Source of the DNA: an uncultured Pseudomonadota bacterium
GTDB taxonomy: Bacteria > Oederibacteriota > Muellerivitia > Muellerivitales > Muellerivitaceae
Direction: 5' to 3'
DNA: 64,000 bases
Assembly (NCBI GenBank): GCA_963836235.1
Contig: CAWIIP010000002.1
Location: 864,001-928,000 of the forward strand
Positions 45,361 through 61,513 of the stretch are shown piece after piece. Numbering within the stretch: position 1 is the stretch's first letter; each line of letters begins with the position of its first letter. The notes under the pieces were generated by a model, which saw nothing but the letters and a program-made list of their open reading frames with translations, was not told the DNA's origin and did not search any database. Position numbers and translations under genes: made by a program.

Positions 45361-45530
45361 ATCCAAGGCATTCTTTCAATTACCCTAGCCCCTTCTCAGC
45401 TTCAGGCCCCAACACCGCCAATATTCGTGATTTGTAAGCGCCGTTCCAATAGTGTGACGGTGGGCGGTCCAAAAGTGTGACACCCCCCTCCTTCCATACG
45501 CCTTACGGTGTATGGTTTTGGTTCACCCTA

Positions 45531-46304
45531 TTAATCCTTCTTGTCTTTATGCTTTAGCCGTTTTTTTGCTTCCCCCAATCTGAAGCTTTGGCCGTTGGCC
45601 TCTAGAATATGCACCCGATGGGTCAAACGGTCAATAAGAGCCCCGGTCATCCTTTCCGATCCCATGATTTCCACCCAATTTTCAAAGGGAAGATTAGTCG
45701 TTACCATCAGGCTGGTACGTTCATAGGCTTTGCTGACCACTTCAAATAGCAGTTCGGCTCCCGCCTTGGTGAAGGGGACATAACCGAGTTCGTCTAGGAC
45801 GATCAGGTTGTACTTCGCCAATTGCCGGTTGAACCTTGCCAATTGTTTTTCCTCGCGGCGCTCCAAAAGTTCTGTCACAAGGCCGGTGACGGAGAAGAAT
45901 CGCACCGCCCGGCCTTGGGTACAGGCTTGGAAGGCCAAAGCCGTGGCTAAATGGGTTTTACCTGTCCCTGAATTGCCGATTAACAGGACGTTTTCTTTTT
46001 TGTCGATGTACTCGCCCCGCATGAGTTCCCGCGTCAATTCCTGATTGATCGAAGGCTGGGCCTTGAAATCGAACGTGTCCAAGGTTTTGAGCACGGGAAA
46101 CCCGGCATCACGAATGCGCCTTTCCTTGGCCCGGCGCTCACGGTCCAGAAGCTCCAACTCGACAAGCTTGAGAAGGTACTGCGGGTAGTCACTGCGCTCG
46201 GTGCGGCAGAGTTGGGCCATCTTGTCGTACTCGCGATACATCGTCGGCAGTTTGAGTTTCTTGAGGTGATGCTCTAGCAAGAGGGTCTTTTTGGATTCGC
46301 TCAT
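45531..46304 (-). CDS. istB: IS21 helper ATPase IstB
   Basis: GNSGTGKTHLA, LIVLDELGY, TTNLPF..W, DRLTH. Confidence 0.97.
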   Translation of the reverse strand: MSESKKTLLLEHHLKKLKLPTMYREYDKMAQLCRTERSDYPQYLLKLVELELLDRERRAKERRIRDAGFPVLKTLDTFDFKAQPSINQELTRELMRGEYIDKKENVLLIGNSGTGKTHLATALAFQACTQGRAVRFFSVTGLVTELLERREEKQLARFNRQLAKYNLIVLDELGYVPFTKAGAELLFEVVSKAYERTSLMVTTNLPFENWVEIMGSERMTGALIDRLTHRVHILEANGQSFRLGEAKKRLKHKDKKD

Positions 46305-47812
46305 GCTTCACCTCCGACCGCTAACAGTTCGCGATAGGCCGAAATGTCCTGTCGGGCCACATGGACCCGCCTTAAGTGATCACGACCATCCAAGCTGAAA
46401 GTAGTCAGTCTGAAATCCTCCCTGGGGAAGAGGAGTTGAGCGACGGCGTCGCGGGTGTAAATTTCCATCCCTGCGGCTTTCTTCACCGCACGGGCGAGCC
46501 GCGAGAACGAATACTTCTCCAACAGCCGAAGTGTCTTGATGAATTCCCGCGTCCCCTCGCCGTGAAACTTTTCTTTGCCTTTCATGCGACGGTGCAGGAG
46601 GGTAAAACTCTCCGGCAGATTCCAGTCTTCCAGAGGTCGGGCATGATCGAATGCGCCAGGTTTTCCCTCCAAAATCGCCAAATAATGCACCGGATTGAAG
46701 GTCGCGCCTTCCTTGCCCCAAAGGCGGACGTGGGTCGCGATGAGTTTTTCTTTGTAGAAAATATCTACCCGATCAATGTATCCCTTGACCACCACCGGAT
46801 GATGTGCCCATTGTGATGGCACGGAATAATCGTTGGTGTCGAAGCGCACCAGAGACTGCGATGATGCCGTGGTGGACTGTTTAATACAGGCGTCAAAATC
46901 GGCGGCTGGTAACGGCCTGAAATGGGCCTTATCCTCGTCTAGGAGCTGCGCCTTGGTGAATCCTTTACCGCGCAATTTGCGTTCTAACTCCTCGCTACAG
47001 TTCACCTCCAACTTTTTGTTCAGTTCCTCCAAGATTCTCACCTGTGGAACCGGCACCATGAAATTCGATCGGGAGTATTTCACGATTCCTTCCACCACAC
47101 CCTTTTCATTACCCCTGCGTACGGTGCAGAAGTGGTAGTCAAAGAGATAGTGGCTTACCAACTGCTGGAAACCTCGTGTCAACTCTCGTCGGTGTACCCC
47201 AATAAACTTTTTCACGAGGGTTTTAGCGTTGTCGTAGCTGATCCGTGAAGGCACTCCACCAAAGTATTTAAAAGCTCTGATGTGGCCTTCCCACACGAAC
47301 TCGGTGCTCTCTCGCTCAAACATCTGCACGTAGAAAGCATCTGAATAGGGCAGGGCCATCACGAAATACGGGCGTTTCACCAACACGCCGTTGAGCTTGA
47401 CCAAGGCGTGTCCAAAGTCTACCTGTGCCTCACCAGGCCGATGTATCAGCGGAATGAATACCTCGCTGTTCCTCTGCTTGAGTCCCCGGACAGCTTTTTT
47501 TACCTGGGTATAGCCGCCGGTGTAGCCATCCTCGGCGCACAGGCGCTCGAAGATACGCTTGGCGGTATGGTGCTGTTTCTTGTGGATGTGCTTGTCGTCT
47601 TCTAGGATTTGCTTGATGCGGTCCAGAAACGGCCCAATCTTCGGCTGTTTCCGATCACCGTTTGTCCGGTAGCCCGGAGGCTCACTATGGGCGAGTATTT
47701 TCTTGAGGGTTTCCCAGTGAATACCCTCTTCTTCCATCACCTGGCGTTTGGAAACCCCTTCTACCAGGATTTTCTTGCGAATTTCGATCCATTGGTCCAT
47801 ATCGTTGTACAC
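46301..47812 (-). CDS. istA: IS21 transposase IstA
   Basis: AQVDFG, FGGVP..I.YDN, EKGVVE, VRFDTNDYSVP. Confidence 0.97.
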   Translation of the reverse strand: MYNDMDQWIEIRKKILVEGVSKRQVMEEEGIHWETLKKILAHSEPPGYRTNGDRKQPKIGPFLDRIKQILEDDKHIHKKQHHTAKRIFERLCAEDGYTGGYTQVKKAVRGLKQRNSEVFIPLIHRPGEAQVDFGHALVKLNGVLVKRPYFVMALPYSDAFYVQMFERESTEFVWEGHIRAFKYFGGVPSRISYDNAKTLVKKFIGVHRRELTRGFQQLVSHYLFDYHFCTVRRGNEKGVVEGIVKYSRSNFMVPVPQVRILEELNKKLEVNCSEELERKLRGKGFTKAQLLDEDKAHFRPLPAADFDACIKQSTTASSQSLVRFDTNDYSVPSQWAHHPVVVKGYIDRVDIFYKEKLIATHVRLWGKEGATFNPVHYLAILEGKPGAFDHARPLEDWNLPESFTLLHRRMKGKEKFHGEGTREFIKTLRLLEKYSFSRLARAVKKAAGMEIYTRDAVAQLLFPREDFRLTTFSLDGRDHLRRVHVARQDISAYRELLAVGGEA

Positions 47813-49860
47813 TCCTTTTCCTTCCGGTGCCTGTAGTTCCATTGCTGAAAACCACATCATCCGGTAAATTCGGGGAGTGTCACACTTTTCGACCGCCCTT
47901 TGAGGGCCTCAGACCGTCACAGTATTGGAGCGCCGTTTACACCGATCGGGGTTTTTGGTCCATAAGTTGTTAAAGTGCATAACAATGCTAGGTCTAATCA
48001 TTAAGGAAAGACCTGGATCAGCGACAAGTGTTTGAACTACTCGGTCCACATCTCCCCTTAAAATCAACCGCTCAACTGCATAATCGAATAAAACATGATG
48101 TGAATAAGTCAAAAAATCCGAATCTGGGGTCGCCGCAGGGGAAGACTGAAATTCAATAATTACCCCTGTGCTTAAAAGATCACCTAAAAATGTGCTCTCT
48201 GCCGGATTCGAAAAAAGTGACCTCTCAACTATAAGTTTCTTGTCCCCGATCATTCTTTCGCAGGCTTTTCGAAGGACTGCGGAACGAGCATCCCTTTGGT
48301 GGTCGTTTCTTTCGACCCGGTAATACCAGTATTTATCTAAAAGGTCGATTTGTGAGCTGACAGAAGAGATTTCTGAAATATCCGCCGAACCCTCTAACAG
48401 TTCGGCAACCAAATGCAAATTGAAAGGGTTTCTTAACAAGACTTTTAATTCACCAGTTGCATTCCTTACCACTTGATAAAGGTCGGTGGATTGGGCGTCT
48501 ATTTGAAGAAGTTCCGGATCGTCAAAACCAGAGATGGAAACATGACGATAACCGGAGAACTCTTGATCTTGAAATTCCGAGTTATTATCCGATTGCCTGC
48601 CGGTATCCCTAAAAAGTGCCTGTAGCGCCCGGCTGTGACGCAAATCATATTTCCGAATAGAAACGACAACACGCCAACGGGAATTTAAACCCATGAGAAG
48701 ACGAATTAAATCTCTGAAATTGCTAAAGGCGACATCATCTCGTATTGCATCGAGTGAGTCCAAAACGAAATAGGCTGGTTCTCCTCCAATCCAATTTTGG
48801 AACACGTCTAAAATTTCATGCTCTAGTTGCAGTTTTCCTTTTAATTCCGTTAAATCTTTTACGCTCAAAAAACCAGCGTTCAAAAAGACAACATCTTTTT
48901 GTCTTGCCAACAAATTACCGACAAAATCATGAAGAACACCACTTTTACCCGCCCCAGGCTCTCCAACCACAAGACAATCTCCGCCACCAGCAAAAGAATC
49001 CATAAAAGTTACAACAGACCTATTTATTTTGATTTGGGTTGATCCAACCTTCATCAATGAGTTAATGCCCAAACGTTGGATCGTCATTTGTGTTTGGTTC
49101 TTTAATTTTTGAATATCCGCATCAAAACTCGGAACCCATTTAAGATCGAACCCCAACTGTATTAAACGGGTTTGAATAAATCCTCGATTCCCCCCGGTTC
49201 GGGTAGAACCAAAGGTCAAACATAAATCGAGTAAAGCACTCCAAACCGCACCTGCCGCAGAAGAGGTTTTTAAAACAGCGGATGACAAAAGGTCTTTGGC
49301 AGAGGTTTCATCATTCCCCCCGCTCTCAACATTCAATGATTGGACATAAGCCAATTTTAAAATCCCTTTTAAATCCTCATTTGAGGGAGAAGAACCAATT
49401 AACTTTTGCCACGCCTCGTTTAAATGTTTTTTTAATTTTGTCAGCACTCCTTGTTCGTCAGCATTGACCGCCGTTGAATCTATTGTTTGTTCGGGAGTCA
49501 GCGTGCGAGCACGATTTAGAATATTGGATAACTCGTTTCTTATTTTCCCTGATGCTGTGGGCCCAACTGTCAAAATGAGTCTATCCTTTTCACCGAGCGG
49601 TCTCGGGTTTAAGACCTGGGCGCTGGCCTGTAATCGATGAGCATTAAATTGTTTAACAAATTGATGGATAACGGAGGCGAACTCGGATTCAGAACCTTCC
49701 TCCGCATCTAAAGACCTCTTAACTTGAATATAGATGCGGCCACCGGTAGCCTGGCCGACAAGAATATCATCGACAGATTGACCTGTTTCACACCCTAGGT
49801 AATTTAAAATTGTTGAATGGGGAAGATCGAAAAGAGGTGAGGCACTACTATCTGCCAGAA

Positions 49861-51218
49861 GGTCGCGTCAAGTTTCAGGGTGTAAAAGTTACGGGCGCCT
49901 AAATCAAGCAGCCTGACTTTTGACCTCCTTGCGACTGGTGTGGACTTTGATTCTGTTCCATCGTTCTTGTTGAGCCGTTGCCACTCCCCACAAAAGTTTC
50001 ACCAAAGTTCTTTCGTTCGTCATTCCGCCTACCGGTTTGAACCTCCGTCTCAATTCTCGGTTAAACCGCTCGATCAAGTTTGTACTCCTGAGTAGCATCC
50101 AATCTTTGTGGTCCTGTTGAAAGAAGACAGTGTACTTCTCAAAGTCTTTTTCAGTCATTGCCACCGCCTTAGGGTAGGCTTTTCCCCATTTGGCTTTGAG
50201 TTCACCCAAAGCTATTAGCGCCCGGTTCTTGCCGTCGGCCCAATAAACTTTCGTGAAGTCTTGTAGAAATTCTTTTTGGTCCTTGGCCGCTACCCTCACG
50301 CGGACGTTTCTCATCTTGTGAATGACACATAATTGGTGGGGAATCGACAGTTTTTCTTCCACCGCCGCCAGAATGCCTGCGTGGGCGTCCGATACCACCA
50401 GCTTCAAAACCTTTCGATCCAAGCCTCGTGAAAGCAGATCCTCCAACAAGGCACTCCAACTCTCTTTGCTCTCTGAGTCTCCCACCACAAAACCCAAGAA
50501 ATGGCGGTGCATTGTTCCATCCACCCCAATGGCCACCAAAAGGGCTTGGTTTTCATAGCTTCCCATGCATTTCAAGGAAACATACAAAGCGTCCAGGTAC
50601 AGGTATTGAATTCCTTCCGCCAAGGGCCGTTTTTCCCACGCAACCACCATTGGCTCCAGGTCTTGTGTCCATTGGCTGACCTGATTGGCCGTATGTTTGG
50701 TCCCGAACACCCCATTTAATTCCTCGGCCACCGATCGGGTTGAGGCACCTTTGATCCAAAACCTTCTTCCCAAATGAGCCATCAAATTCCCGGTCCCTTC
50801 CCGCAAAGCCTCAAGGGTACGGGGAATAAATCCACCCTCCCTCAAGACGGGCTTGTTCAACTTCAAGCGCCCAAAAGGCCCCGGCAAAACCATTTTCCGA
50901 AACCCATTGCGGTAAACCCCTTCGGATGGACAAGCCGCGGAAGACCTGCGGCCCAAAAACTCGTCCCGTTCTTCCTTCAAACGGGTATTTAAAGCATCTT
51001 CCAGCAAACCATTAATCTCTTGTTCAACCCAAACCCGAAGATCCCCAGCGTCCAATACAGCCTGAACTTGGGCTTTCACCTTTTCCTTTACCAGCACCTT
51101 CAACGACTGTTGTATATTCTTCATGGGCGTAACGACCTTTCACAAAAAGGGATATGGCGTCTTCAATCAACACCATGTTACGCCCGCTTCTGTTTACACC
51201 CTGGAATCATACGGAACC
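49861..51218 (-). mobile_element. IS256 family insertion sequence
   Basis: Imperfect TIRs GGT..CGT....TT.CAGGGTGTAAA; 8-bp TSD TGCCAGAA at 49853-49860 and 51219-51226. Confidence 0.95.
49904..51124 (-). CDS. IS256 family transposase
   Basis: YRNG, YLYLDA, VSDAHAG, QLCVIHKMRN, STNLIERFNRELRRR. Confidence 0.97.
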   Translation of the reverse strand: MKNIQQSLKVLVKEKVKAQVQAVLDAGDLRVWVEQEINGLLEDALNTRLKEERDEFLGRRSSAACPSEGVYRNGFRKMVLPGPFGRLKLNKPVLREGGFIPRTLEALREGTGNLMAHLGRRFWIKGASTRSVAEELNGVFGTKHTANQVSQWTQDLEPMVVAWEKRPLAEGIQYLYLDALYVSLKCMGSYENQALLVAIGVDGTMHRHFLGFVVGDSESKESWSALLEDLLSRGLDRKVLKLVVSDAHAGILAAVEEKLSIPHQLCVIHKMRNVRVRVAAKDQKEFLQDFTKVYWADGKNRALIALGELKAKWGKAYPKAVAMTEKDFEKYTVFFQQDHKDWMLLRSTNLIERFNRELRRRFKPVGGMTNERTLVKLLWGVATAQQERWNRIKVHTSRKEVKSQAA

Positions 51219-51334
51219 TGCCAGAATACGAGTTCCGTACCAAGCCGCTACACGAGCTTGGAAAGTAACTCCACCAGTAGCCGCTGATCCTCCACTTGAA
51301 GTCGCACTAGACAAGTCATTTCCTTTAACAATCC

Positions 51335-52738
51335 CTATTCAAAAGCCGCAAGAATACCTGACAGTTCAGAAGGATTGTTCTTGGCCGCAGATTGGTTAAT
51401 CATTGTTTTAATTTCTTCCGTCGTCGCCCGTTTATTGTTAGAGCCACGTCTTACAAAAAACATAAGTTTTTCTCTACTTTGATAAGGTTTGTCCTTCCCA
51501 ACCGAAATGTTTGCCATCACAATCCAATGCCCATCATATTGATGTAAAGTCACGGAGAATTCGGCCTGTTTGTCTGTGGCACTTCCAATAGCTTGTCTTA
51601 CAAAACCGCAATACTCTTCTAATTCCTTTTGTGCCGTCAATTTACCAGAAACAACACCTTTTTCGATTCCATCAACGGAACAGTTGTTGTTTACACCTAT
51701 TAAAATACGACCACCGCCCGTATTCAAAAAAGCCACCGTTGTTTCTACCAATTCCTCCAATTTGCTCTTGTCAGAATTTTTTATAAAAGGTTTGTATTCA
51801 ATTTGGAGCCCTTCACCAGACTCTAAAGCCTCCTTGATAATCTTTTTGTCTTCCAATTCAATATCTTTTTTTCCAAGAAACGGGAGGATATTTTTCTGTC
51901 CGACCTGCCAGTGAGAAATTTCTTGATGTAAATCATAAAGATTCTCTTCATCATCAACCAAATAGAAGTTAAATCCCGTAGCTTTTTCAGGAGCTTTAAT
52001 TTTTACTTTTTCCGAAGAGACTGTTTCCGAAAATTGAATTAAGTTCGTGTCTTGTTCCCAAACGCCTTTTAATCTCAATCCTTGGATTTCTTCTTTGAGA
52101 GATTGGATACCGATCGATATTCCATCCTCTAGATACTCCATTTCGTTAACCCAGGCTCTGCATTCCTGGAAAAAAAGGAGAACCGAACCAAACAAGCTGG
52201 AATTAGCATCAATATTTTGCAGGCCGGACCAATGACGTATTGCACTATGAACGCTGGGATAGACCGGAAGAGAAGAAGAAATAACTGGTTCATGCGATGC
52301 AAAATTCGGCCTGCTATTACAATCTCCCTGAAAATAATAAATGGGATTTTTTGAATGTCCATCCGTCTTGAACTCAAAATGCCCAATGCGATCACAACCA
52401 GTCGTTAGAATATCTTGATCCCCGATGCTGATTTTTCCGGTTTTCAATTGCTGTAAATAACTTTCAACTTGGTCAACTTCAATCCAATATTCTAAAAATT
52501 GAATTTTCTCATACTTTTGATTTTCTACCGGTTTCGGTTGTTTGGTTTTCAAAAATGTTTGGAACACACAAAGGCCGTTACGCCACAATTCCTCAGTTCC
52601 AACAGTGGTTTTTACTAAAACAACACGAACTCGAATTTTTGAATAAAATTTTTTATTGTCATCAATAACTTGATTTATTAGCGACCAAACTTCTTCGCCC
52701 GTCGAAAAGTGTTTGTAAGTGGAATCACTGGTTTTCAT
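51335..52738 (-). CDS. Schlafen/AlbA_2 domain protein with unknown N-terminal region
   Basis: C-terminal GEGLQIEYK, VAFLNTGGGRILIGVNN, KPY...FVRRGS. Confidence 0.85.
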   Translation of the reverse strand: MKTSDSTYKHFSTGEEVWSLINQVIDDNKKFYSKIRVRVVLVKTTVGTEELWRNGLCVFQTFLKTKQPKPVENQKYEKIQFLEYWIEVDQVESYLQQLKTGKISIGDQDILTTGCDRIGHFEFKTDGHSKNPIYYFQGDCNSRPNFASHEPVISSSLPVYPSVHSAIRHWSGLQNIDANSSLFGSVLLFFQECRAWVNEMEYLEDGISIGIQSLKEEIQGLRLKGVWEQDTNLIQFSETVSSEKVKIKAPEKATGFNFYLVDDEENLYDLHQEISHWQVGQKNILPFLGKKDIELEDKKIIKEALESGEGLQIEYKPFIKNSDKSKLEELVETTVAFLNTGGGRILIGVNNNCSVDGIEKGVVSGKLTAQKELEEYCGFVRQAIGSATDKQAEFSVTLHQYDGHWIVMANISVGKDKPYQSREKLMFFVRRGSNNKRATTEEIKTMINQSAAKNNPSELSGILAAFE

Positions 52739-52953
52739 GGAAAATAAAATTCCTTCAAAGACATTTAAATAACCATTCGCACTTGGTTCTTTAACATAAC
52801 TTGAATTTTTAATTAGATTATTTTATCACTTAAAAACTTTTAAACAAACTGAAGGCGAGTTTTCACTGAAAGAGCGTCTATTTTTTGTCTAAATTCTAAA
52901 TAAGGCCTTTAGGAATGGGGTTACCGCTTTTATATGTTACTGCACCTTACATA

Positions 52954-53795
52954 TTATTCTGTATAAACCACGTAACTGGAACATATAGAACACGGGCATT
53001 GAATTGGGCAAGGCTGCATTGGCGGTTGCGGAACTGGTGTAGGTGGTGGTGGTGACGGAGGCGACCACGGAGGGATTAACAAACCCAACGGATCAGTAAA
53101 TTCAATGGGATTATTATTCGCATACCAGTATAAATTTGAATCGCTTGAAGTTGTTGCTCCAAAGCCATGATTTTTAAATTGGTCAATCGGGTCTCTACTC
53201 AACCACCTGCCCTTTTCCGTGTCATAGGCTCGATAGTGGGTCAAATCCAGGCCGGTGGTCTTGTTGACGTAATAACCGGCATAGCCAAAATCCGCCGTCA
53301 CCGCTTGGCTTAAAACCGCCTGCCTGCCCCACGAGTCGTAATCGTAGCTAGCCTGCACATTCCCGCTGGAATCCGTCATCTCCCTTACGCTTCCAAGATT
53401 GTCTTTTGCGAAGTAATAATTTGTCCCGCTAATCTGTTCCCCTTGGTCGAAGAACTGATTCACTACCGTATGCCCCGTCACGTCCCTTTGTTGGCATAAC
53501 TTTTCCCCACACCACACGAACGTCTTAGCAGTCAGTACGGTAGAGCCGTGGCTTTCGGTAATTCCTACGCAACGGCTTTTCCCGTCATAGGTGAAAGTGA
53601 TGGTGTCCGTCATGGTGGGAGGTTGTGGGTTAAGAACGTTTATCTGTACGAGCCGGTTGGCCGCGTCCCACTGATAGGTATACTTGTTGTCTGACAATAA
53701 CGATCCATTCGCGTCGTATTGAAAAGGCGTCGTGTTCAAGACATGATTCTTTTGAGAAGCCACCGTCCCGTCGGGGGCCACTGCCAGAATGGTCA
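52954..53795 (-). pseudogene. Rhs/YD-repeat-associated core fragment (5'-truncated, degenerate C-terminal tip)
   Basis: YDANG, YQWDAANRL, DNLGSVR, YDYDSWG, RAYD...GRWLSRDP, NLY.Y..NNP....DPLG; begins at the 38-bp repeat. Confidence 0.88.
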
Positions 53796-53833
53796 AGTTG
53801 CACACTATCCTTTTTGCGACAGGCATGTGCAGG
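53796..53833. repeat. 38-bp junction repeat, copy 1
   Basis: AGTTGCACACTATCCTTTTTGCGACAGGCATGTGCAGG. Confidence 0.95.
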
Positions 53834-53900
53834 AGAAGGCCTCGCTGGTCAATGGATCAAGCCTGTTACGGTTAGTGGCATTCCAACGGGTTTTCACTTT

Positions 53901-53938
53901 AGTTGCACACTATCCTTTTTGCGACAGGCATGTGCAGG
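53901..53938. repeat. 38-bp junction repeat, copy 2
   Basis: Identical to copy 1. Confidence 0.95.
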
Positions 53939-54306
53939 ACAAAAATAAAAATAAAATACAGAATCAGGAATGAGACTAAAACACAAAATATAAGCCCTAA
54001 AACGAATCCAATTATCCAAACGAGAACATCTCAACCACTATGAATGGGCCAATTTGAATGTCGGAAAGAATAAATCATCATAGGCAATGTCAAAGAACCG
54101 ACAGCTAAGGGAAAAAACAAATTCATAACCTTGTTGAACCTAATTGTTTTTCGAACCTCATTAGGGTCTTGAACTACTTGGTTTGGTTGAAAAAAATTTT
54201 CATATTTGATGAGACCGTCTTTAAACCAGCCCAACATTTTTTCAAGACGAGGTGCCCAGCCGGCGAAATCGACAATAGCTAGAAAAAGTCCCAAAACTTC
54301 AAGCAT
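53939..54306 (-). pseudogene. Membrane protein remnant with in-frame TGA, cut by repeat copy 2
   Basis: MLEVLGLFLAIVDFAG...HSG*DVLVWIIGFVLGLIFCVLVSFLILYLFLF; hydrophobic frame continues past the stop into the repeat. Confidence 0.55.
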
Positions 54307-54534
54307 GACCCGTCCCCATTCTTTGTACCACTTGTCCGCGCCAGCCGAAAAGGATTTGAGCCGTCCAGCATCCGAAATAAAGAACCCATGAACAAACGAA
54401 CCGACATCCCCCGGAATAGAACGGGTCCCCGGATCAGACAAAGCAAAGCAAATAATGGAGACCCCCGACTTTTGTCACAATGCAAAAGTCTTATTTTTTG
54501 CTAGGTTTTAAAAGTTCCTAACAACAAAAAAGTT

Positions 54535-55191
54535 TTACTTACCGGGAGTTATCGAATCCACTTCGATCCCAATAAATAAAAGTTGGTTTTCCGTTTGGTC
54601 AGCCACTGGAACTTGATAAATTTTTTGTTCTTCCAATGCTTTTCGAATATCTTGGAAGTTAATTACGGCCACGCCAATTGGAGTCGGCTTCGGATTCATT
54701 AGGTTTTTCGAGTAGAGTGTTATTTTGAATCGAGTTCCGCCATCAAAAGGAACGTTTTGATAAGAAGGCAAATGAAAAATCGGAGTGTAAGTACGTTCCA
54801 ATTCTTTTTTTGTACTAACTAGTCTAGCTTGCAATTTTGAATCGTACTGGCCATTGATAGCAACTTCAACCATGCCATATGGGGCTGGTTTCCCAGAACC
54901 CGAAATTAAAGAACCACTCAACAACCCTACAATCCCCGTGTATGGGTTTGCCCCTAAAAGTAATTGTGCTAATTGGTTTGTTACTGAAGGATTAACCTTT
55001 CCTGTGCCACTCCAGTGGGAACCATCAACCTTGGATGGGCCAATGGTCGCATTCACAATTTGAACTGTTACAAATTTTGGCGGAATCTCCGCGGTTTGTT
55101 GGGCTGGAGTAGATATAGTTGTTATTGTTTGTGCCCTCAATATTCCGGAAGAAATCAGCGCAAATAACATAATTAAACTTAATTTTTTCAT
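54535..55191 (-). CDS. Secreted hypothetical protein
   Basis: AAAGGA RBS; signal peptide MKKLSLIMLFALISSGILRA; 218 aa. Confidence 0.75.
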   Translation of the reverse strand: MKKLSLIMLFALISSGILRAQTITTISTPAQQTAEIPPKFVTVQIVNATIGPSKVDGSHWSGTGKVNPSVTNQLAQLLLGANPYTGIVGLLSGSLISGSGKPAPYGMVEVAINGQYDSKLQARLVSTKKELERTYTPIFHLPSYQNVPFDGGTRFKITLYSKNLMNPKPTPIGVAVINFQDIRKALEEQKIYQVPVADQTENQLLFIGIEVDSITPGK

Positions 55192-55264
55192 TTTCTCAAT
55201 CCTTTCAAAATTCGACTATTACTATTAAAAGAAGGCTCATTGTAATCCATAACTGACAGCCGTC

Positions 55265-55302
55265 AGTTGCACACTATCCTTTTTGCGACAGGCATGTGCA
55301 GG
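55265..55302. repeat. 38-bp junction repeat, copy 3
   Basis: Identical to copies 1 and 2. Confidence 0.95.
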
Positions 55303-55840
55303 CAAATAATTGTCTCCAAACAAGTTCTCCAGTACCAGGAAGAAGATTATCCTGAGCACTAAAAGCTTTAGCCGCTACCCCCTCTGCGGAAATTGCCATC
55401 TGCGCTCCATCATCTTTCGATTTTAAAATTTGTATCGCTGCATCACCAACAATAGTTGTAGTCTCATTTATTCGTGAGGTTAAATCCCGAAAACGTTGGG
55501 CAGCTTGTTTTAATCCTCTTGCTTTAGATTTCGGGTCTATTTCCGATAAGATTAACTTTAATTGAGCATATTTCTTTTCCTCCATTTCAGAAATACGTCC
55601 AAGGGTTTCCACCGTCTTTGGGTCTGTATTAAATCCAAGAGTGCTAATTAAACTCCCAACTTGAGTATTTCCGATCAAATCACGATAAGGGGTGGCATCG
55701 GTATTAATACTATGAATTTCTTCGTCAAGTTTTTTAGTAAGGATTGGAATAACCTTTTGTCCTAAATCTTGAACTGTATCCAAACCATATGGTCTAAAAG
55801 TAGGTTCTCCTTCATCCAAATATGCTCGAGCACATCTACC
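55303..55840 (-). pseudogene. Internal fragment of a large coiled-coil AAA/ABC ATPase (AAA_13/RloC-like, tentative)
   Basis: RCARAYLD..FRPYGLD and LPGTG..W..LF segments recalled from island-borne AAA ATPases; no Walker A in the fragment; both ends truncated. Confidence 0.5.
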
Positions 55841-55891
55841 TTTTTTTAATCAGTTCAAATTAGATTCATCACACTTACTTAAAAGGTGCCT

Positions 55892-56953
55892 CTAACTACT
55901 GCTGCCGCTAACAGAAAGATTACACTGATTTGGCTCAGTAACAGTCCCACTAAAAGATTGATTGTTGTTACCAAAAGTTAAATTAACAGTGGCTGTCTCG
56001 CCGGTTGAATAAACATAACCAGTTAGTACTGCTGTAGTTCCTGATATGGTTCCAGTTAAAGTAATTGGAGATTCACCTGCGACAGACAAGTCAAAAGTAA
56101 GATTCGATCCGTTTTGACTTAGCGTGCCATTCCAAGCATAAGAAAGTCCAACCCCACAAACACAGGAAACCCCGCAAGTACCACCCGTAACAGTTACGTT
56201 CCCCGACCAAGTGCATCCCGGAACAGTAAAATCAGCCCCAAACTCTGCCCCACCAACCCCGCCAAAAATATAGGTTCCGCATCCTGTCAGTGACGAACTT
56301 GTATATGAACCCGAATAAAGTGTGCCCAAATAATTAAAGCTCACTTGGAAGCCATCACCGGGGCTGACGACCGGCAAGGTTTGGTTAAAGACACAGCTGG
56401 TTGACCCGCCATCCGCTATAAAACTTCCCAAAATAGTGGATGGATTACCCAGGTGGTTGAACACGATCGTAATCGGAACACCGATTAGGCAAGAGTTTGT
56501 TTCCCCGACCCCATAACTGATGGCCGCGTAAACTTGAAAATTCCAGTTTTTAAGACTGACATTTTGAAATACCGTAGTTAAATCACAGGTGGCCGTAGGT
56601 GTTACTGAAGAGACAACAGTATTCGTAAAGGTAGGTGTGTTTGTCGGGGTGGAAGAAAACGTATAAGTCGTCGATAAGGTATTAGTTGGCGAATAGGTTG
56701 GGGTCGGGGAAAAAGTATTAGTCGGTGTGTTAGTGATCGTAAACGTGTTCGTGAAAGTAAAAGTGAAGGTCGGCGTACAGGTAGGGGAAGTTCCCACGAA
56801 ACAAGCCTGGGTGGGGGTAAAAGACGGGGTGGCCGACCAGTAAATAGTTACTGGAGCGGGGGCGGTAGGAGTGGTGGTTTTGCCAGGGCAACCGACGATG
56901 AAAACTGATCCCAAAACCAAGAAACCCGCAAGGCAAAATAAACGTAGTTTCAA
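55892..56953 (-). CDS. Thr-rich lipoprotein with Cys-containing beta domains
   Basis: GGAG RBS, TTG start, lipobox IVGC-PGK..PTAP, TPT linker. Confidence 0.8.
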   Translation of the reverse strand: MKLRLFCLAGFLVLGSVFIVGCPGKTTTPTAPAPVTIYWSATPSFTPTQACFVGTSPTCTPTFTFTFTNTFTITNTPTNTFSPTPTYSPTNTLSTTYTFSSTPTNTPTFTNTVVSSVTPTATCDLTTVFQNVSLKNWNFQVYAAISYGVGETNSCLIGVPITIVFNHLGNPSTILGSFIADGGSTSCVFNQTLPVVSPGDGFQVSFNYLGTLYSGSYTSSSLTGCGTYIFGGVGGAEFGADFTVPGCTWSGNVTVTGGTCGVSCVCGVGLSYAWNGTLSQNGSNLTFDLSVAGESPITLTGTISGTTAVLTGYVYSTGETATVNLTFGNNNQSFSGTVTEPNQCNLSVSGSSS

Positions 56954-56991
56954 AAAGGCACTCCAATAAAAGATTCATTCAACATTTCGGA

Positions 56992-58674
56992 TCAATAAAG
57001 CTCCACGTTAGAAACATAAACATTGGCGGTATTGAAGGAAGCGGTCGCGCTGGCTCCCGTATAGAACGAGAGCCCGATTTGCTGGACGTTCGTGGCATCC
57101 GTTCCGGTAAAGGCCGGCGCGAAATTGACTTGGGTCCATGTACCGGCGCTCGATAAATTGACATAACCCCCATTGTAGTTGTCCGCATAACTGTTGGTAT
57201 TAACGAATAAACCCGCCCCTGGATAGCCGTTGGAAAAAACCGCGTCCGTTTTGATCCAGCCACGGAAACCCGTGACCCCCAAGGTCGTGAAATTGGCAGC
57301 GTTAGAACCCGTCCCCCAGGTGTACTGAATATTGTCCTGCTGGCCCGCGGCGGTGAATTGGATATTGTCGGTTACGCAATTGGCGCTGTTGTACCCCGGT
57401 GAGGATGAAGAGAGACCCGAAACCACCGGAGTCGGTCCGGTGGTAACCCCACTCAGGTAGTAATTGGAATAATCCGACCAGCCGGTCAAGGCCGTTGAGG
57501 AGCCAGAATCAAACCAGGTTCCGCCCGCAACAGGCGTCGGCGTCGCCGGTGTGTTACTGATCGTGACATCGTCGACATAAATGTGTCCGGTTGTAGCCGA
57601 GGTACCGGATTGCACCTGAACTCCAAGGCGTTCGACTTGCGCGGCATTTTCCCCCGAAGTGGCCCAATTAGGGGTGAAGGTTAATTGAGTCCAACTGCCC
57701 GCCGTCAAGTTGGTTCCGGCATTGTTCTCCCAGGTATATCCCGTTCCGCTCTCTGTAAAGAGTTGGGCGAAGCTTCCCGCACCCGCGATCACAGGGGCGT
57801 CCACATAGACCCAAAGGCTGATGGTTTGGCCGGAAAGATTCGCTGGGGAAGCGAAAAGAATATCGATATTGACCGTCCCGGTGCCAGAGAAGGGCGCGGT
57901 AGCTTCAAAAGCCCCTATTCCCGAGTGAACGGTGGTTGAGGAATAAGAATCCGTGACCCCTGAAAGGGAGCTATCGGCGGTTGACCAGCACTGCAAGCCA
58001 TAGTCAAAAGTGTAGCTCGACAGGAAAACCGCGCTTGAGCATGGCGCGGGTGTGTTAGTAGAGGTCAAAGTTGAGGTAACGGTGAAGGTGGGAGTGAATG
58101 TAGAAGTATTCCCGCTCCCATTGGTTGCGGTAGGAGTATTAGTGGCGGTTGACGTTAGTCCACCCGTATTGGTCGGCGTCGAAGTGGGGGTGGTCGTCGG
58201 GGTAAAACTGGGTGTCCCCGTGACCGAGTTTGTGGGCGTAAAGGTTTTTGAGACGGTATTGCTAGAGGTTGCGGAAGGGCTGTTGCTGGGAGTTAAAGTG
58301 GGTGTCGCCGTGGTCGTACTCGTGGCGTTATTGGTCGCGGTCGGGGTATTGCTGGCCGTGAACGTTGGACTGTTTGTGCTGGTGAAAGAAGGGGTGCTAG
58401 TCGTCGTTCTTGTATTGGTCGCGATTCCCGTTGAGGTCGGTGTGCTTGTGGCCGTAAGGGTAGGGCTGTTGGTAGGAGTAAAGGTAGCGGTAAATGTGAA
58501 GGTCGGAGTGAAGGGTGTTAGGGTTCCTGTCGGAGTCGAAGTCGCTGTGCTGGTCGTGACAATGATTACTGTTACGGGAGCAGGACTGGTGGGGTTATCT
58601 TTCCCAGGACATCCAATGTTTGAAAAAGCTATTCCAGCCAGAACCGAAAAAAGCCCAATAATGCGATATTTCAT
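56992..58674 (-). CDS. Thr-rich lipoprotein with two carbohydrate-binding-module-like domains
   Basis: Lipobox NIGC; two repeats with ANL.G.TISLWVYV..AG.WTQL.F..V..LG.....YVDDV jelly-roll pattern. Confidence 0.8.
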   Translation of the reverse strand: MKYRIIGLFSVLAGIAFSNIGCPGKDNPTSPAPVTVIIVTTSTATSTPTGTLTPFTPTFTFTATFTPTNSPTLTATSTPTSTGIATNTRTTTSTPSFTSTNSPTFTASNTPTATNNATSTTTATPTLTPSNSPSATSSNTVSKTFTPTNSVTGTPSFTPTTTPTSTPTNTGGLTSTATNTPTATNGSGNTSTFTPTFTVTSTLTSTNTPAPCSSAVFLSSYTFDYGLQCWSTADSSLSGVTDSYSSTTVHSGIGAFEATAPFSGTGTVNIDILFASPANLSGQTISLWVYVDAPVIAGAGSFAQLFTESGTGYTWENNAGTNLTAGSWTQLTFTPNWATSGENAAQVERLGVQVQSGTSATTGHIYVDDVTISNTPATPTPVAGGTWFDSGSSTALTGWSDYSNYYLSGVTTGPTPVVSGLSSSSPGYNSANCVTDNIQFTAAGQQDNIQYTWGTGSNAANFTTLGVTGFRGWIKTDAVFSNGYPGAGLFVNTNSYADNYNGGYVNLSSAGTWTQVNFAPAFTGTDATNVQQIGLSFYTGASATASFNTANVYVSNVELY

Positions 58675-59672
58675 AGAGTTCCCAAGTTAACGCCGAATTC
58701 CTCGATGATAACAGCGTGGGCCGGGCTGGTGGCCGTGGCATCCGTGATATAGGTGTCCCATTGGGATCCGCCCGCCGGGTATCCCTTGCTGGAATAAACA
58801 TGGGAGGAATAGAGGACGCCATTGCCCGAACCCGTATCGGTCAGGTCATTGGCGGGTAGCCCCGTCAAGTCGAAAGCCCAGTTAAGTCCGCCCGCCACCA
58901 CGATGTTATTGGCGCCCGCGTTGCGGACAGCGGTCAAGAGGGCCTGGAGGCCCGGAGTTGTGAAACCATTGGCCGCGCCACCGTCCCGCCAGATGGACCA
59001 GCTGACGTCGTGGGGCTCGTTATAGATGTCGAACATGACGGCGGGATTGTTGGCATAAGTGGAGGCCACCGAGGACCAGAAAGTGACGGCGTTCATGTCC
59101 GGCATATCTTGTTGGGCGGTAGCGCCACCCCATCCCGTTCCGCAAGGTGCTGTCGCGGTGCTTGAGGTTCCCGACCAATGGAGGTCCAAATCCAAATAGA
59201 CATTGTTCGCGGAGCAATAGTTGATGACCGCCTGGATTTCCGCCCGATAGGCGGTTTGATTGGGCGTCCCTCCTGAATTGGTACAGCCGAACCAAAAATC
59301 CTGGTTGATGGGGAACCGGACGCAGTTGGCGTGCCAAACGCTGACCGCCTCAGTGATGATCGAAACGTAATCCGTCATGGTGACGCCGCTAATAGTGGTC
59401 GTGGGACGGCCTGTGCCACCGTCACCCGTGGGGCTATATTCCATTCCGGAAACGTCCACACCCTTTAAGCGGACAGTACAACCGCCGCTGGCTGTAACAA
59501 TCTGGTTACCCGAGATTTTAAGTTGAGCGGAAGTCGCGTGAACTTCGGAAGGAACCACCACAAAAAAGAGGAAAACCGCAAGGGACAAAAAGGACACAAA
59601 AACAAATCGAGCGAAAAACGTTTTTAAGTTTTCGCATAAAGTGAATTTCTGGATTTTAAAGGACCCGTTCAT
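58671..59672 (-). pseudogene. GH5 cellulase-family glycoside hydrolase, C-terminally truncated
   Basis: LKGVD.SG.EY, VRFP, LDLHW, FDIYNEP (acid/base), SSHVY, IIEEFG (nucleophile); ends 6 codons later, lacking the last barrel strand. Confidence 0.8.
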
Positions 59673-59725
59673 GGTGTCCCCTTTTTGAGATGACTACTTT
59701 TCCAACCGGGTAAATTATTTGTAAA

Positions 59726-61429
59726 CCGGAATTTCCCAGATGACCTTCTCTGAAAACATTGCCGGGTAATTTGTTTCTCATTATATCGCCCCCCCCCCGC
59801 TTCTTCCATCCGAATCCGGAATTTTCCGTCCTGGGCCACTGAAATAAGCCCCAGGAAAAGGTTTCTGTGCCCAAAAAAGCTGAAATTGACCTTCTGGAAA
59901 GCCAATTCTCGTTGTGAGCGCACACCTATCCTGCGGTAGTCGCTCGGGTTGAAGCCTTGATGCCTTCCTGCGGTTATCGCAGTACTGGCGCTCGCGGCCT
60001 TACCATTGCCAGTAGCCGTATCCGATTGAGGATTTCAGCAAACAGGCGTCGGGAAACCATCACCTCCGCCATCTGGAAAATAACGTACCGCGAATGACGG
60101 ATGACATTAGCCCCGATCTTGATGAGTTTTTCCCTCAAGGTCGTTAGCGACCAATGTTTCACCAGTTCTGGCAGTGCCAGTCGGCGCAGGAAGTTGCCCA
60201 GATTGTAGGCCAGGGCGAATAGTTGTAAGCGCACTTGGTTGTCCGCGAAGTCGTGGCAGCTTAGTCTTGTCCACTTCATCGCATACTTTCCCTCTTTGAT
60301 CCACTGCTCAGCCGTGCCTCTTCCGTTGTAGAATTTCACCACCTGGGGTGCCGGTCGTCGCATGTTCGTTACGATGAAACCCACCTTTGGGAACAATTCC
60401 CCGTTGTGATGTTCGATCTTCGCCACCACGCGGCGGGGTTTGTCCCAGCTGACGGCTTGGTATTGGAAGCTGTGAAACCGGACAACCGGCTTGTGGGAGG
60501 GGCGGCCCACGGGACGGGTTAAAAATGGCTCGATTTCCCGTTGGAGTATGGCATTGGCAGGTTGGCGGATCGCGTAAAGATATCCTTCGTCTTCTAGGTA
60601 TTCGTATAGTTCCTGACGGGCGAAAGCCGCGTCACCCCGGAAAAACCGGCTGATGGAAAGACCCCGGTAGCGGGCAACTACCGGTTCAAGAACCGAACGC
60701 CATTCGTGGGCACTGGCCACATTGCCGTTGCGCAACATAGCCCGTTCCAAATCGCCGAACTGGTTGAAGCAAAACAGGGGATGGTAACAGGTACAGCCAA
60801 AGTAACCGTTGTACAAGGAACCTTCCTGATCCCCGTAGGTCTCGCTCACTGAGCTATCCATGTCGAGGATGATCTGTTGTATGGGCTTTTTCTCATGGAC
60901 TCCATCGATCCATTGGCCCGATAAGTCAATTAAGCCGGTCAAATTCTTCGACTGGGTGAGGACCTCCGTCTCGAAACGACCCATCTGGCTGGTGGAGGCG
61001 GCCTGTTTTTCCCTGGCCCGTCCTCCGATCACATGCCGCATCGCAGGATCGACACTCAGGCGTTCTGCGTCGTTGGTATCCTCATAACCGGCCAAGCGGC
61101 TGAATACCGACTGGCGAAGAAGCGCCGTCATCGTGTGTTGCGTATTCTTACCGGTCCGCCGATCCCAAAGGATGTTTTCTGTTCTGTCAGTCAAACCAAA
61201 AGCTTCGTCGAGTTCGCGATAGGGAATCAACCCGCCATCGGAAGTGACCTTCGCACCATGGAACTCCAACTTGAGGCCAGGATCAAAAACCACCCGAAGA
61301 GCGTCTTTTCCGCCTTCACCCATTGCATTTCCCCCTCTCATGTTCCCCAACACGAAGAAAAACCTTTGTTTATATGGCCAAACGTTGTCTTATTATACTC
61401 GAAAGGAAATTCCATCTGGGAAATCCGGG
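59726..61429 (-). mobile_element. IS1380 family insertion sequence
   Basis: TIRs CCGGAATTTCCCAGATG (59726) and CCCGGATTTCCCAGATG (reverse complement ending 61429); no matching TSD. Confidence 0.92.
59974..61353 (-). CDS. IS1380 family transposase
   Basis: TSDGGL, GYED.NDA, LDMDSS, YHPL, RGDAAF, YN.RG.AE.WIKEGK, N.VRLQL..LAYNL. Confidence 0.96.
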   Translation of the reverse strand: MLGNMRGGNAMGEGGKDALRVVFDPGLKLEFHGAKVTSDGGLIPYRELDEAFGLTDRTENILWDRRTGKNTQHTMTALLRQSVFSRLAGYEDTNDAERLSVDPAMRHVIGGRAREKQAASTSQMGRFETEVLTQSKNLTGLIDLSGQWIDGVHEKKPIQQIILDMDSSVSETYGDQEGSLYNGYFGCTCYHPLFCFNQFGDLERAMLRNGNVASAHEWRSVLEPVVARYRGLSISRFFRGDAAFARQELYEYLEDEGYLYAIRQPANAILQREIEPFLTRPVGRPSHKPVVRFHSFQYQAVSWDKPRRVVAKIEHHNGELFPKVGFIVTNMRRPAPQVVKFYNGRGTAEQWIKEGKYAMKWTRLSCHDFADNQVRLQLFALAYNLGNFLRRLALPELVKHWSLTTLREKLIKIGANVIRHSRYVIFQMAEVMVSRRLFAEILNRIRLLAMVRPRAPVLR

Positions 61430-61513
61430 ATTATGTCTTTGATCCAACGACTCTGATTTTCTCACTGTTGGATTGCTGGCCGGTTTCGGGCGGATCAAAA
61501 AATGCACTAGGCA

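Follow-up and report, generated by a model that had tools for sequence, protein, structure and literature searches.

In a 64,000-nt stretch of the genome of an uncultured bacterium (contig CAWIIP010000002.1, positions 864,001 to 928,000, the whole of which we refer to as the window, G000:C2:864001-928000 in our genome numbering), three exact copies of a 37-bp direct repeat are joined to pieces of DNA that are unrelated to each other. The same repeat is found directly downstream of a cas1-cas2 gene pair on another contig of this genome. The reading that we favor, at a probability of roughly 55%, is that the 37-bp unit is the cognate repeat, of CRISPR type, of a compact, mobile, stand-alone adaptation module, and that the window holds a leaderless orphan mini-array which a stand-alone Cas1-Cas2 integrase without control of spacer length would have built in trans, a catalytic role that we infer. 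G000 denotes the genome carrying the window, and G001, G012, G021, G025, G026 and G030 are genomes of its family.

The preliminary description of this locus reported a 38-bp element with an internal dyad (TGCACA-N21-TGTGCA) and with three mismatch-free copies in the same orientation, lying 67 and 1326 bp apart, all of which we confirmed: the copies occupy 53796-53833, 53901-53938 and 55265-55302 on the + strand, no further match with up to three mismatches occurs in the window, and 100 shuffled sequences yielded 0 matches. Aligning the 10 copies present in G000, on three contigs, with their flanks reduced the conserved unit to 37 bp (GTTGCAC...GTGCAGG on the + strand), placing the repeats at 53797-53833 (R1), 53902-53938 (R2) and 55266-55302 (R3). 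The leading A belongs to the flank, where the base before the 37-mer is A in 5/10 copies, G in 2/10, C in 2/10 and T in 1/10; because this base varies, the proposed target tetranucleotide AGTT is unsupported. Flank logos of the copies contain no strong motif, PAM-like or other, and show no more than a weak preference for A/T between -7 and -3. The flank palindrome AACTGAC-AGCC-GTCAGTT pointed out at copy 3 is present but occurs at that copy only. Across the 10 copies there is no similarity past the 37 bp, and no partial or degenerate repeats exist elsewhere in G000, including at junctions that lack the repeat.

In its length and in its three exact window copies the unit agrees with the direct repeats of CRISPR arrays (~23-50 bp, near-identical), and it is highly homogeneous, with 8 sequence variants among 91 copies. 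Read in the direction cas1, cas2, repeat, the window copies lie on the - strand (CCTGCAC...GTGCAAC). Neighboring copies are direct everywhere except in two inverted, head-to-head pairs (G025:C3:400723-400905 and G030:C170:52252-52469), 109 and 144 bp apart. A scan of window positions 50000-60000 against Rfam 15 at E<=1 gave 0 matches, so the unit is no curated Rfam repeat family. Its terminal 6-bp stem is kept across 18 variants; the 8 U-G wobble cells in it pair on the cas-direction strand alone, and one change is compensatory, which weakly supports a possible role of the repeat at the RNA level.

One of the 10 copies in G000 sits 22 bp after a cas2-cas1 pair (G000:C1:431426-432930), which occupies the right flank of that copy and is encoded on the opposite strand, and it is on this ground that we regard the 37-mer as a CRISPR-type repeat. 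The preliminary description had seen no recombinase in the window and had supposed an enzyme acting in trans; the module is indeed encoded outside the window, once in G000 and on another contig. The module consists of cas1, cas2, ~22 bp and the repeat, with a repetitive extragenic palindrome (REP)-like hairpin at its far end and no second repeat; nowhere else in G000 does a repeat copy have an adjacent leader and cas genes. The first gene, an open reading frame (ORF) of 346 aa, encodes Cas1, as judged by PF01867 (E=3e-68; 230 bits, cut-off 22.3) and TIGR00287 (E=2e-74; 251 bits, cut-off 71.7). It aligns over its full length to the solved Cas1 structures 4n06 and 7cr6 and retains the acidic, His and Asp/Glu motifs (LLGxEG, GLDPYxGxxH and DLxExFR, which we take to be the conserved Cas1 motifs).

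The 111-aa ORF that directly follows, overlapping the cas1 stop codon, scored below cut-off against the Cas2 family PF09827 (15.5 bits against 23.8, E=0.021). A profile built from ten of its homologs gave five best matches in the PDB of which two are titled Cas2, the other three presumably also being Cas2-family chains. Its AlphaFold2 model has the order beta-alpha-beta-beta-alpha-beta, at a pLDDT of 74 overall, of ~90 or more over residues 11-70 and with low confidence for a C-terminal extension (residues 78-111), and the best Foldseek matches of this model in the PDB were nearly all Cas2 (2ivy, 4es1, 8d3l_E; probability 1.0). By its predicted fold, the 111-aa product is Cas2.

The 1.5-kb module recurs four times in G025, a genome of a different genus, at 98.7-99.8% identity, and at 98.7-100% in other genera overall; G000, G025 and G012, which represent three genera, share a Cas1 with 100% identity. 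Its neighbor is mgtA in G000 and gltB in G026 and G030. Such near-identity across genera, combined with differing neighbors, implies that the module is horizontally mobile.

Several features of the module and its surroundings were observed alongside. Consensus promoter matches in the leader were no commoner than in shuffled sequence. A palindrome, TGCAGG-AG-CCTGCA, spans the repeat end and the leader start near their junction (L001 1533-1546, on G000:C1), and weaker versions (CAGGCT|CCTG) occur at this junction in several metagenome relatives. Past the module repeat by 255 bp, and co-oriented with it, lie an intact AAA_21 ATPase gene and then a DUF4276 gene (L115 17412-19171, G000:C1), which may be a defense-type pair. 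At six loci (L050, L064, L066, L068, L074 and L108), truncated module remnants of 89-272 bp stand by the repeat and are followed by similar sequences (for example GAACAAAGGGGCCAGG..., GAATAACGGGGTCAG...), possibly the terminus of a different mobile element with insertions in the cas2-proximal region.

The far end of the cas1-cas2 module is bounded by a second repeat family of G000, a ~30-bp perfect palindrome (TTGTCCACGACGGGGACCCGTCGTGGACAA) that also occurs in a loop-flipped form. Its 52 copies form clusters spaced 0.4-3 kb (for example C2:1192094-1205567, C4:135628-145860 and C4:854529-860205), none of them in the window, and a 1276-bp unit with an NHL-repeat lipoprotein gene, present in two 100% identical copies (C4:57528-58803 and C2:1195350-1196625), is flanked by it on either side. 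This palindrome could be a REP-like element or, alternatively, a marker of cassette boundaries.

The repeat and this cas1 co-occur. Allowing up to three mismatches, the repeat was found in 5/30 other genomes of the family and in 0/30 genomes of other families, and G021 is a sixth family genome that carries it, in a more divergent variant. Among the 31 family genomes, which are kin and not independent samples, all 5 with this Cas1 (>=94% identity) carry the repeat and 0/24 genomes without the repeat have the Cas1; two genomes have repeats without this gene. In a scan of one genome per species (185,579 genomes), the repeat appeared solely in metagenome-assembled genomes (MAGs) of candidate division FCPU426 and in one further MAG from this set, whose title reads 'uncultured proteobacterium'. 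Among them are MFD MAGs of the Nanopore era and an older Illumina bog MAG, in which a 3692-bp contig bears the repeat at both ends, and the sequence variants of the repeat track lineages. The presence in both Nanopore and Illumina MAGs and the small number of variants (8 among 91 copies) rule out a sequencing adapter and make assembly chimeras unlikely as a general cause of the repeat. Identity with a known CRISPR repeat was among the outcomes that the preliminary description had set as refuting it; the unit touches on this condition, being of CRISPR type, and has no Rfam match.

More widely, a search with Cas1 gave 1117 homologs at E<=1e-20; those closest to the cluster without belonging to it are 57-82% identical, and several are labelled as Patescibacteria or Parcubacteria MAGs. 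On metagenome contigs whose Cas1 is 56-72% identical, cas1 is followed by cas2 and then, ~3-45 bp away, by a homologous repeat of 36-37 bp (10 loci listed), with a conserved GCT just ahead of the repeat in these 10 listed relatives as well as in the FCPU426 module. A second repeat follows at two of the metagenome loci, after 183 and 549 bp. In three loci a 5' fragment of cas1 is joined straight to the repeat, and cas1 is also cut by a repeat in G025. The two longest metagenome loci have housekeeping neighbors (SecDF, L10, CCA-adding enzyme, MgsA) and no effector. A pattern search for the repeat in IMG/VR gave 0 hits.

The identical repeats are separated and flanked by unrelated pieces of DNA whose borders at the repeat are exact to the base. 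None of the 65 gaps between neighboring copies falls within 20-60 bp; 44 measure 68-4227 bp and the rest are larger. Together with spacers of 30 and 38 bp added by G021, the lengths run 30, 38, 68, 73, 94, 104 and so on up to 4227 bp. Canonical length is found in 2 of the ~53 spacers of up to 5 kb in six genomes, both of them in G021, and the regular spacing of a CRISPR array is missing. Neither of the two short G021 spacers is matched exactly in IMG/VR.

For some of these pieces, a donor could be traced. A whole 559-bp spacer of G026 is 100% identical to nucleotides 1024-1583 of a 1713-bp insertion sequence (IS) of IS1380 type that is also present in the window; the flanks of the donor resemble neither the repeat nor the array flanks, and neither sequence continues the other. 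In a G025 spacer, the first 540 bp after the repeat are 100% identical to another multi-copy IS. Beside R3 in the window, positions 55303-55840 match, with 0 differences, two longer contigs (records 21 and 22) of an independent study's permafrost run (X3), and the sequences are unlike beyond both ends. These three donors fix the borders at the repeat to the base. The preliminary description had suggested looking for intact donors of the flanking fragments; one spacer and one flank have longer, 100% identical donors, which do not continue across the repeat. It had also proposed an enzyme acting in trans that joins arbitrary DNA at a fixed site, so that an array with 'spacers' of variable length results, an idea with which the unrelated fragments and exact donors agree, but the system is one with cas genes, namely cas1-cas2. 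ORFs are also truncated at two other repeats of G000: one (PolX-like in our own reading, not by Pfam) lacks its 3' part at C1:405292 and another (likewise glycosyltransferase-like in our reading only) its 5' part at C1:380527, and the flanks at five copies are unrelated genes. Again in our own reading, an array in G026 holds a transposase fragment and a phosphoesterase-like piece of 104 bp.

In the window, the proposed mini-array would run from a fragment of an Rhs gene through R1, 68 bp, R2, 1327 bp and R3 to a 537-bp fragment. The Rhs piece (52954-53796, - strand, on the distal side of R1) is a 5'-truncated, C-terminal fragment of 290 aa (RHS_repeat E=6e-10), in keeping with the earlier claim that copy 1 removes the 5' part of the gene; its frame (ORF 52954-53826) abuts copy 1, enters the repeat and uses an ATG within it. 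Rhs fragments adjoin the same side of the repeat in other genomes, at different breakpoints. The first spacer (S1, 53834-53901, 68 bp) has no match but the repeats in its own genome and in 30 family genomes.

The second spacer (S2, 53939-55265, 1327 bp, with genes on the - strand) has a GC content of 39.4% and holds a complete 218-aa ORF of secreted type (54535-55191) and a 136-aa ORF (54031-54441). Neither has a Pfam family, no DNA relatives of S2 were found in the family genomes, and viral matches were limited to two weak local ones of 39% for the 218-aa ORF. Copy 2 had been described as cutting a membrane-protein frame, and a hydrophobic frame does enter the repeat, but with an in-frame TGA 30 codons upstream. 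This TGA (window 54028-54033) splits the 136-aa ORF from a 30-codon hydrophobic continuation running into R2, and may reflect a pseudogene or a base-calling error.

On the other side of R3 lies the foreign fragment traced to the permafrost run (55303-55839, 537 bp, - strand, 38.5% GC), bordered by R3 at one end and by a junction without the repeat at the other. Its ORF is cut at both ends, running out at copy 3 without a stop of its own, which upholds the reported interruption of a frame there; the label AAA-ATPase was not confirmed, as the ORF has no Pfam family, and it has no viral match. Both S2 and the 537-bp piece are lower in GC (~39%) than the window as a whole (51%).

Beyond this fragment come two self-duplicates, joined in head-to-tail order with no repeat and a microhomology of 0-1 bp: a 2851-bp segment with two lipoprotein genes (55840-58690, 99.9% identical to G000:C2:1723848-1726698) and a 1035-bp segment whose GH5 cellulase gene is truncated 3' at the joint (58691-59725, 100% identical to G000:C2:826943-827977). 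Directly after them is the IS1380-type element (59721-61433, - strand, DDE_Tnp_1_4), which has 5 copies in G000 and is 100% identical in G025 and G026. It is one of three ISs within 16 kb, at window 45431-47942, 49860-51220 and 59721-61433. Of the other two, one measures 2.5 kb and recurs in a same-genus genome as several copies of 81-83% identity, and one is of IS256 type (Transposase_mut), with 2 copies. The last 20 kb of the window showed no synteny with the same-genus genome, and since a search against the same-genus G001 gave just IS matches and one 71% match, no empty site can be recovered.

At another array, in G026, the essential-type gene dnaX appears to begin at the repeat border: homology to dnaX in five other genomes starts within 2 bases of the repeat end, and exactly there in 4/5 (L111 4747-4793, G026:C1), the frame in G026 containing the ATG of the repeat. 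Use of this ATG as a start codon or N-terminal tag was considered and rejected: frames of at least 80 codons leaving the repeat number 9, 7 and 13 of 77, with no preference, and the Rhs fragments sit in frames 0, 1, 0 and 1.

How might such arrays form? Integration by Cas1-Cas2 followed by gap repair yields a repeat on both sides of the inserted DNA. In the model that we propose, Cas1-Cas2 acting in trans would join the 3' ends of available DNA fragments to both borders of the repeat, and gap repair would then duplicate the repeat, much as in ordinary spacer acquisition; if fragment length is not measured in this Cas1 clade, inserts of 30 bp to several kb could result. Stacked fragments without a duplicated repeat might, more speculatively, come from repeated one-sided integration at the leader border. 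We favor integration in trans without a ruler because the joints fit the action of Cas1-Cas2 and because cas1-cas2 is the sole gene set linked to the repeat. The arrays would thereby behave as a scrapyard of captured DNA, rich in ISs and foreign gene fragments.

Several observations weigh against this model. To our knowledge, all characterized Cas1-Cas2 integrases measure prespacer length. The single cas1 of G000 is on a different contig from the window, and no remnant of the module or leader stands beside any window copy of the repeat. Donors are identified for one complete spacer and a few partial ones. The junctions at 55839/55840 and 58690/58691 lack the repeat in the very same locus, and G025 has composite spacers, implying that another joining process also operates. 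Moreover, ORFs enter the repeat at 25/154 borders (16%), as compared to 179/562 (32%) nearby control positions, and genes beside repeats are co-oriented with the cas direction at 53 versus 16 left flanks, part of this bias following the gene bias at replichore scale; neither the avoidance of ORFs nor the co-orientation is expected from purely random capture. Short-read contigs of several relatives stop at the repeat, and canonical arrays could therefore be hidden there. Lastly, no Cas12a (TIGR04330) was found in G000, in a search whose positive control was also silent, and the effector searches did not extend to Cas13, type IV or the remaining Cas12 types.

Part of this evidence would be accommodated if the arrays were once canonical, became orphaned, and were scrambled by IS insertion, deletion and recombination between the 37-bp repeats, with no part for Cas1-Cas2 in the long inserts. 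Such a history, which we consider unlikely, could account for the dense ISs around the arrays, including the three in the window, for the repeat-less junctions and composite spacers, for the interleaving of repeat variants within arrays, and for the survival of canonical 30- and 38-bp spacers in G021. It fits poorly with repeats that are undecayed and with the near-absence of canonical lengths, and it leaves unexplained why the internal 559-bp IS piece is bounded exactly by repeats with no leftover short spacer. Joints between the repeat and arbitrary DNA are not a product of IS transposition or of repeat-by-repeat recombination.

The gene-sized spacing, the ~2:1 co-orientation of genes with the cas direction, the intact genes directly after some repeats (AAA_21 with DUF4276; dnaX) and a 1305-bp segment that abuts the repeat in two arrays would also suit integron-like cassettes, moved either by RecA, through the identical 37 bp, or by some site-specific recombinase yet to be identified, and expressed from a promoter in the cas2-proximal leader. 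We regard this as improbable: many segments are gene fragments and not cassettes, the site is a sequence-identical 37 bp, unlike attC, and cas2-cas1 is the only gene set conserved beside the repeat. A tyrosine recombinase does lie beside cas1 in one relative (L120), but not in the FCPU426 modules, and the origin of new joints between repeat and fragment would go unexplained.

Equally doubtful, in our view, is an immune or silencing memory with an unrecognized effector, in which transcription from the cas2 side would produce long guide or antisense RNAs against ISs and mobile DNA. The conserved stem with its wobbles on the cas strand only, the IS fragments among the spacers and the homogeneous repeats point in this direction, but covariation of the stem is weak (1 pair changed on both sides), the two short spacers lack exact IMG/VR matches, the G026 IS fragment is in sense orientation to the cas direction, and relatives lie among housekeeping genes with no effector nearby. 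Searches with PF03787 (RAMPs), PF18019 (Cas3_HD) and TIGR01865 (Cas9) gave nothing over cut-off in G000 or G025, a single Cas9 match in G000 remaining below it at 36.9 bits, and Cas12a was not found in either genome (with the silent control noted above). As no interference module was found among these families, the arrays are probably not classical immunity in G000, for which classical interference is unsupported.

Very improbable, finally, and largely refuted, is that the repeat is an adapter or assembly artifact or a tiny self-inserting element resembling a miniature inverted-repeat transposable element (MITE): the unrelated flanks and identical copies would suit it, and the junction order of the window lacks confirmation by reads (among 4 runs, as short, low-depth Logan contigs and with no RNA run, no contig bridged R1-S1-R2 or S2-R3), but the restriction to FCPU426, the lineage-tracking variants, the homologous repeats after cas2 in independent JGI contigs and contigs of other runs that join the repeat to the module (loose ends at 53835) argue against an artifact, and the lack of any target duplication at the 10 G000 copies, together with flanks that do not rejoin as donor sequence, argues against MITE insertion, as was already claimed at the outset.

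Among known systems, a CRISPR adaptation module is the closest in kind, with its tandem cas1 and cas2, a partly palindromic 37-bp repeat directly downstream, identical repeats, and inserts that include pieces of mobile DNA. Unlike a CRISPR array, the spacers here are irregular, from 30 bp to more than 4 kb, and contain genes both entire and fragmentary; the searches turned up no effector module; and the module is multi-copy and near-identical across genera, with dispersed and often leaderless arrays. As in casposons, an integrase of the Cas1 family would insert long DNA and the insert is flanked by duplicated target sequence, whereas here there are no terminal inverted repeats, the repeat is on one side of the module only (polB was not searched), Cas2 is present, and the inserted DNA is arbitrary and not the element itself.

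Integron arrays and clusters of attC sites lacking an integron integrase share with our arrays the co-oriented, gene-sized units with a short site between them, the integrase at one end and the occurrence of orphan arrays without one. They differ in that the site here is a sequence-identical 37 bp and not a structured attC of 57-141 bp, and in that the linked enzyme is Cas1-Cas2 and not a tyrosine recombinase and the contents are mostly fragments (IntI was not searched). IS26 translocatable-unit arrays, to which the locus had initially been likened, likewise have identical direct repeats between unrelated segments and no target duplications; the analogy is not supported, as the 37-bp unit carries no transposase gene and the joints lie at a fixed external site and not at IS ends. 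An alternative raised with it, that the repeats are the empty ends of an excising element, found no support either. In the literature considered, including passages of PMC12669027 and PMC5294841, whose supplements may hold relevant tables, cas1-cas2 repeats with kilobase spacers are not described. The system is linked to Cas1-Cas2 and hence not outside the known families; it is its behavior that is unusual.

A broader proposal, which we put forward tentatively and with less confidence than the reading of the window, is that a widespread clade of stand-alone Cas1-Cas2 has lost length control and its coupling to an effector, and that its native activity is to insert 0.03 to more than 4 kb of DNA into a 37-bp site, which becomes duplicated in the process. 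This clade would possibly comprise the Patescibacteria-type metagenome contigs and have expanded in candidate division FCPU426. If so, it would represent a natural integrase for the capture of long DNA fragments, one that accumulates pieces of ISs and foreign genes in dispersed arrays and stands functionally between casposons, CRISPR adaptation and integrons.

Insertion of kilobase DNA at the 37-bp site would break the substrate-measuring rule of Cas1-Cas2, would supply the casposon-to-CRISPR scenario with an intermediate that still exists today, and would make the enzyme a candidate for recording or inserting long DNA. Arrays of this kind would be missed by CRISPR finders that depend on regular spacing. 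Should the inserts instead prove secondary, the locus would be an unusually scrambled orphan array and a useful warning for annotation. If our reading is correct, orphan CRISPR-like repeats would drive the formation of mosaic accessory regions in the genomes of this uncultured phylum.

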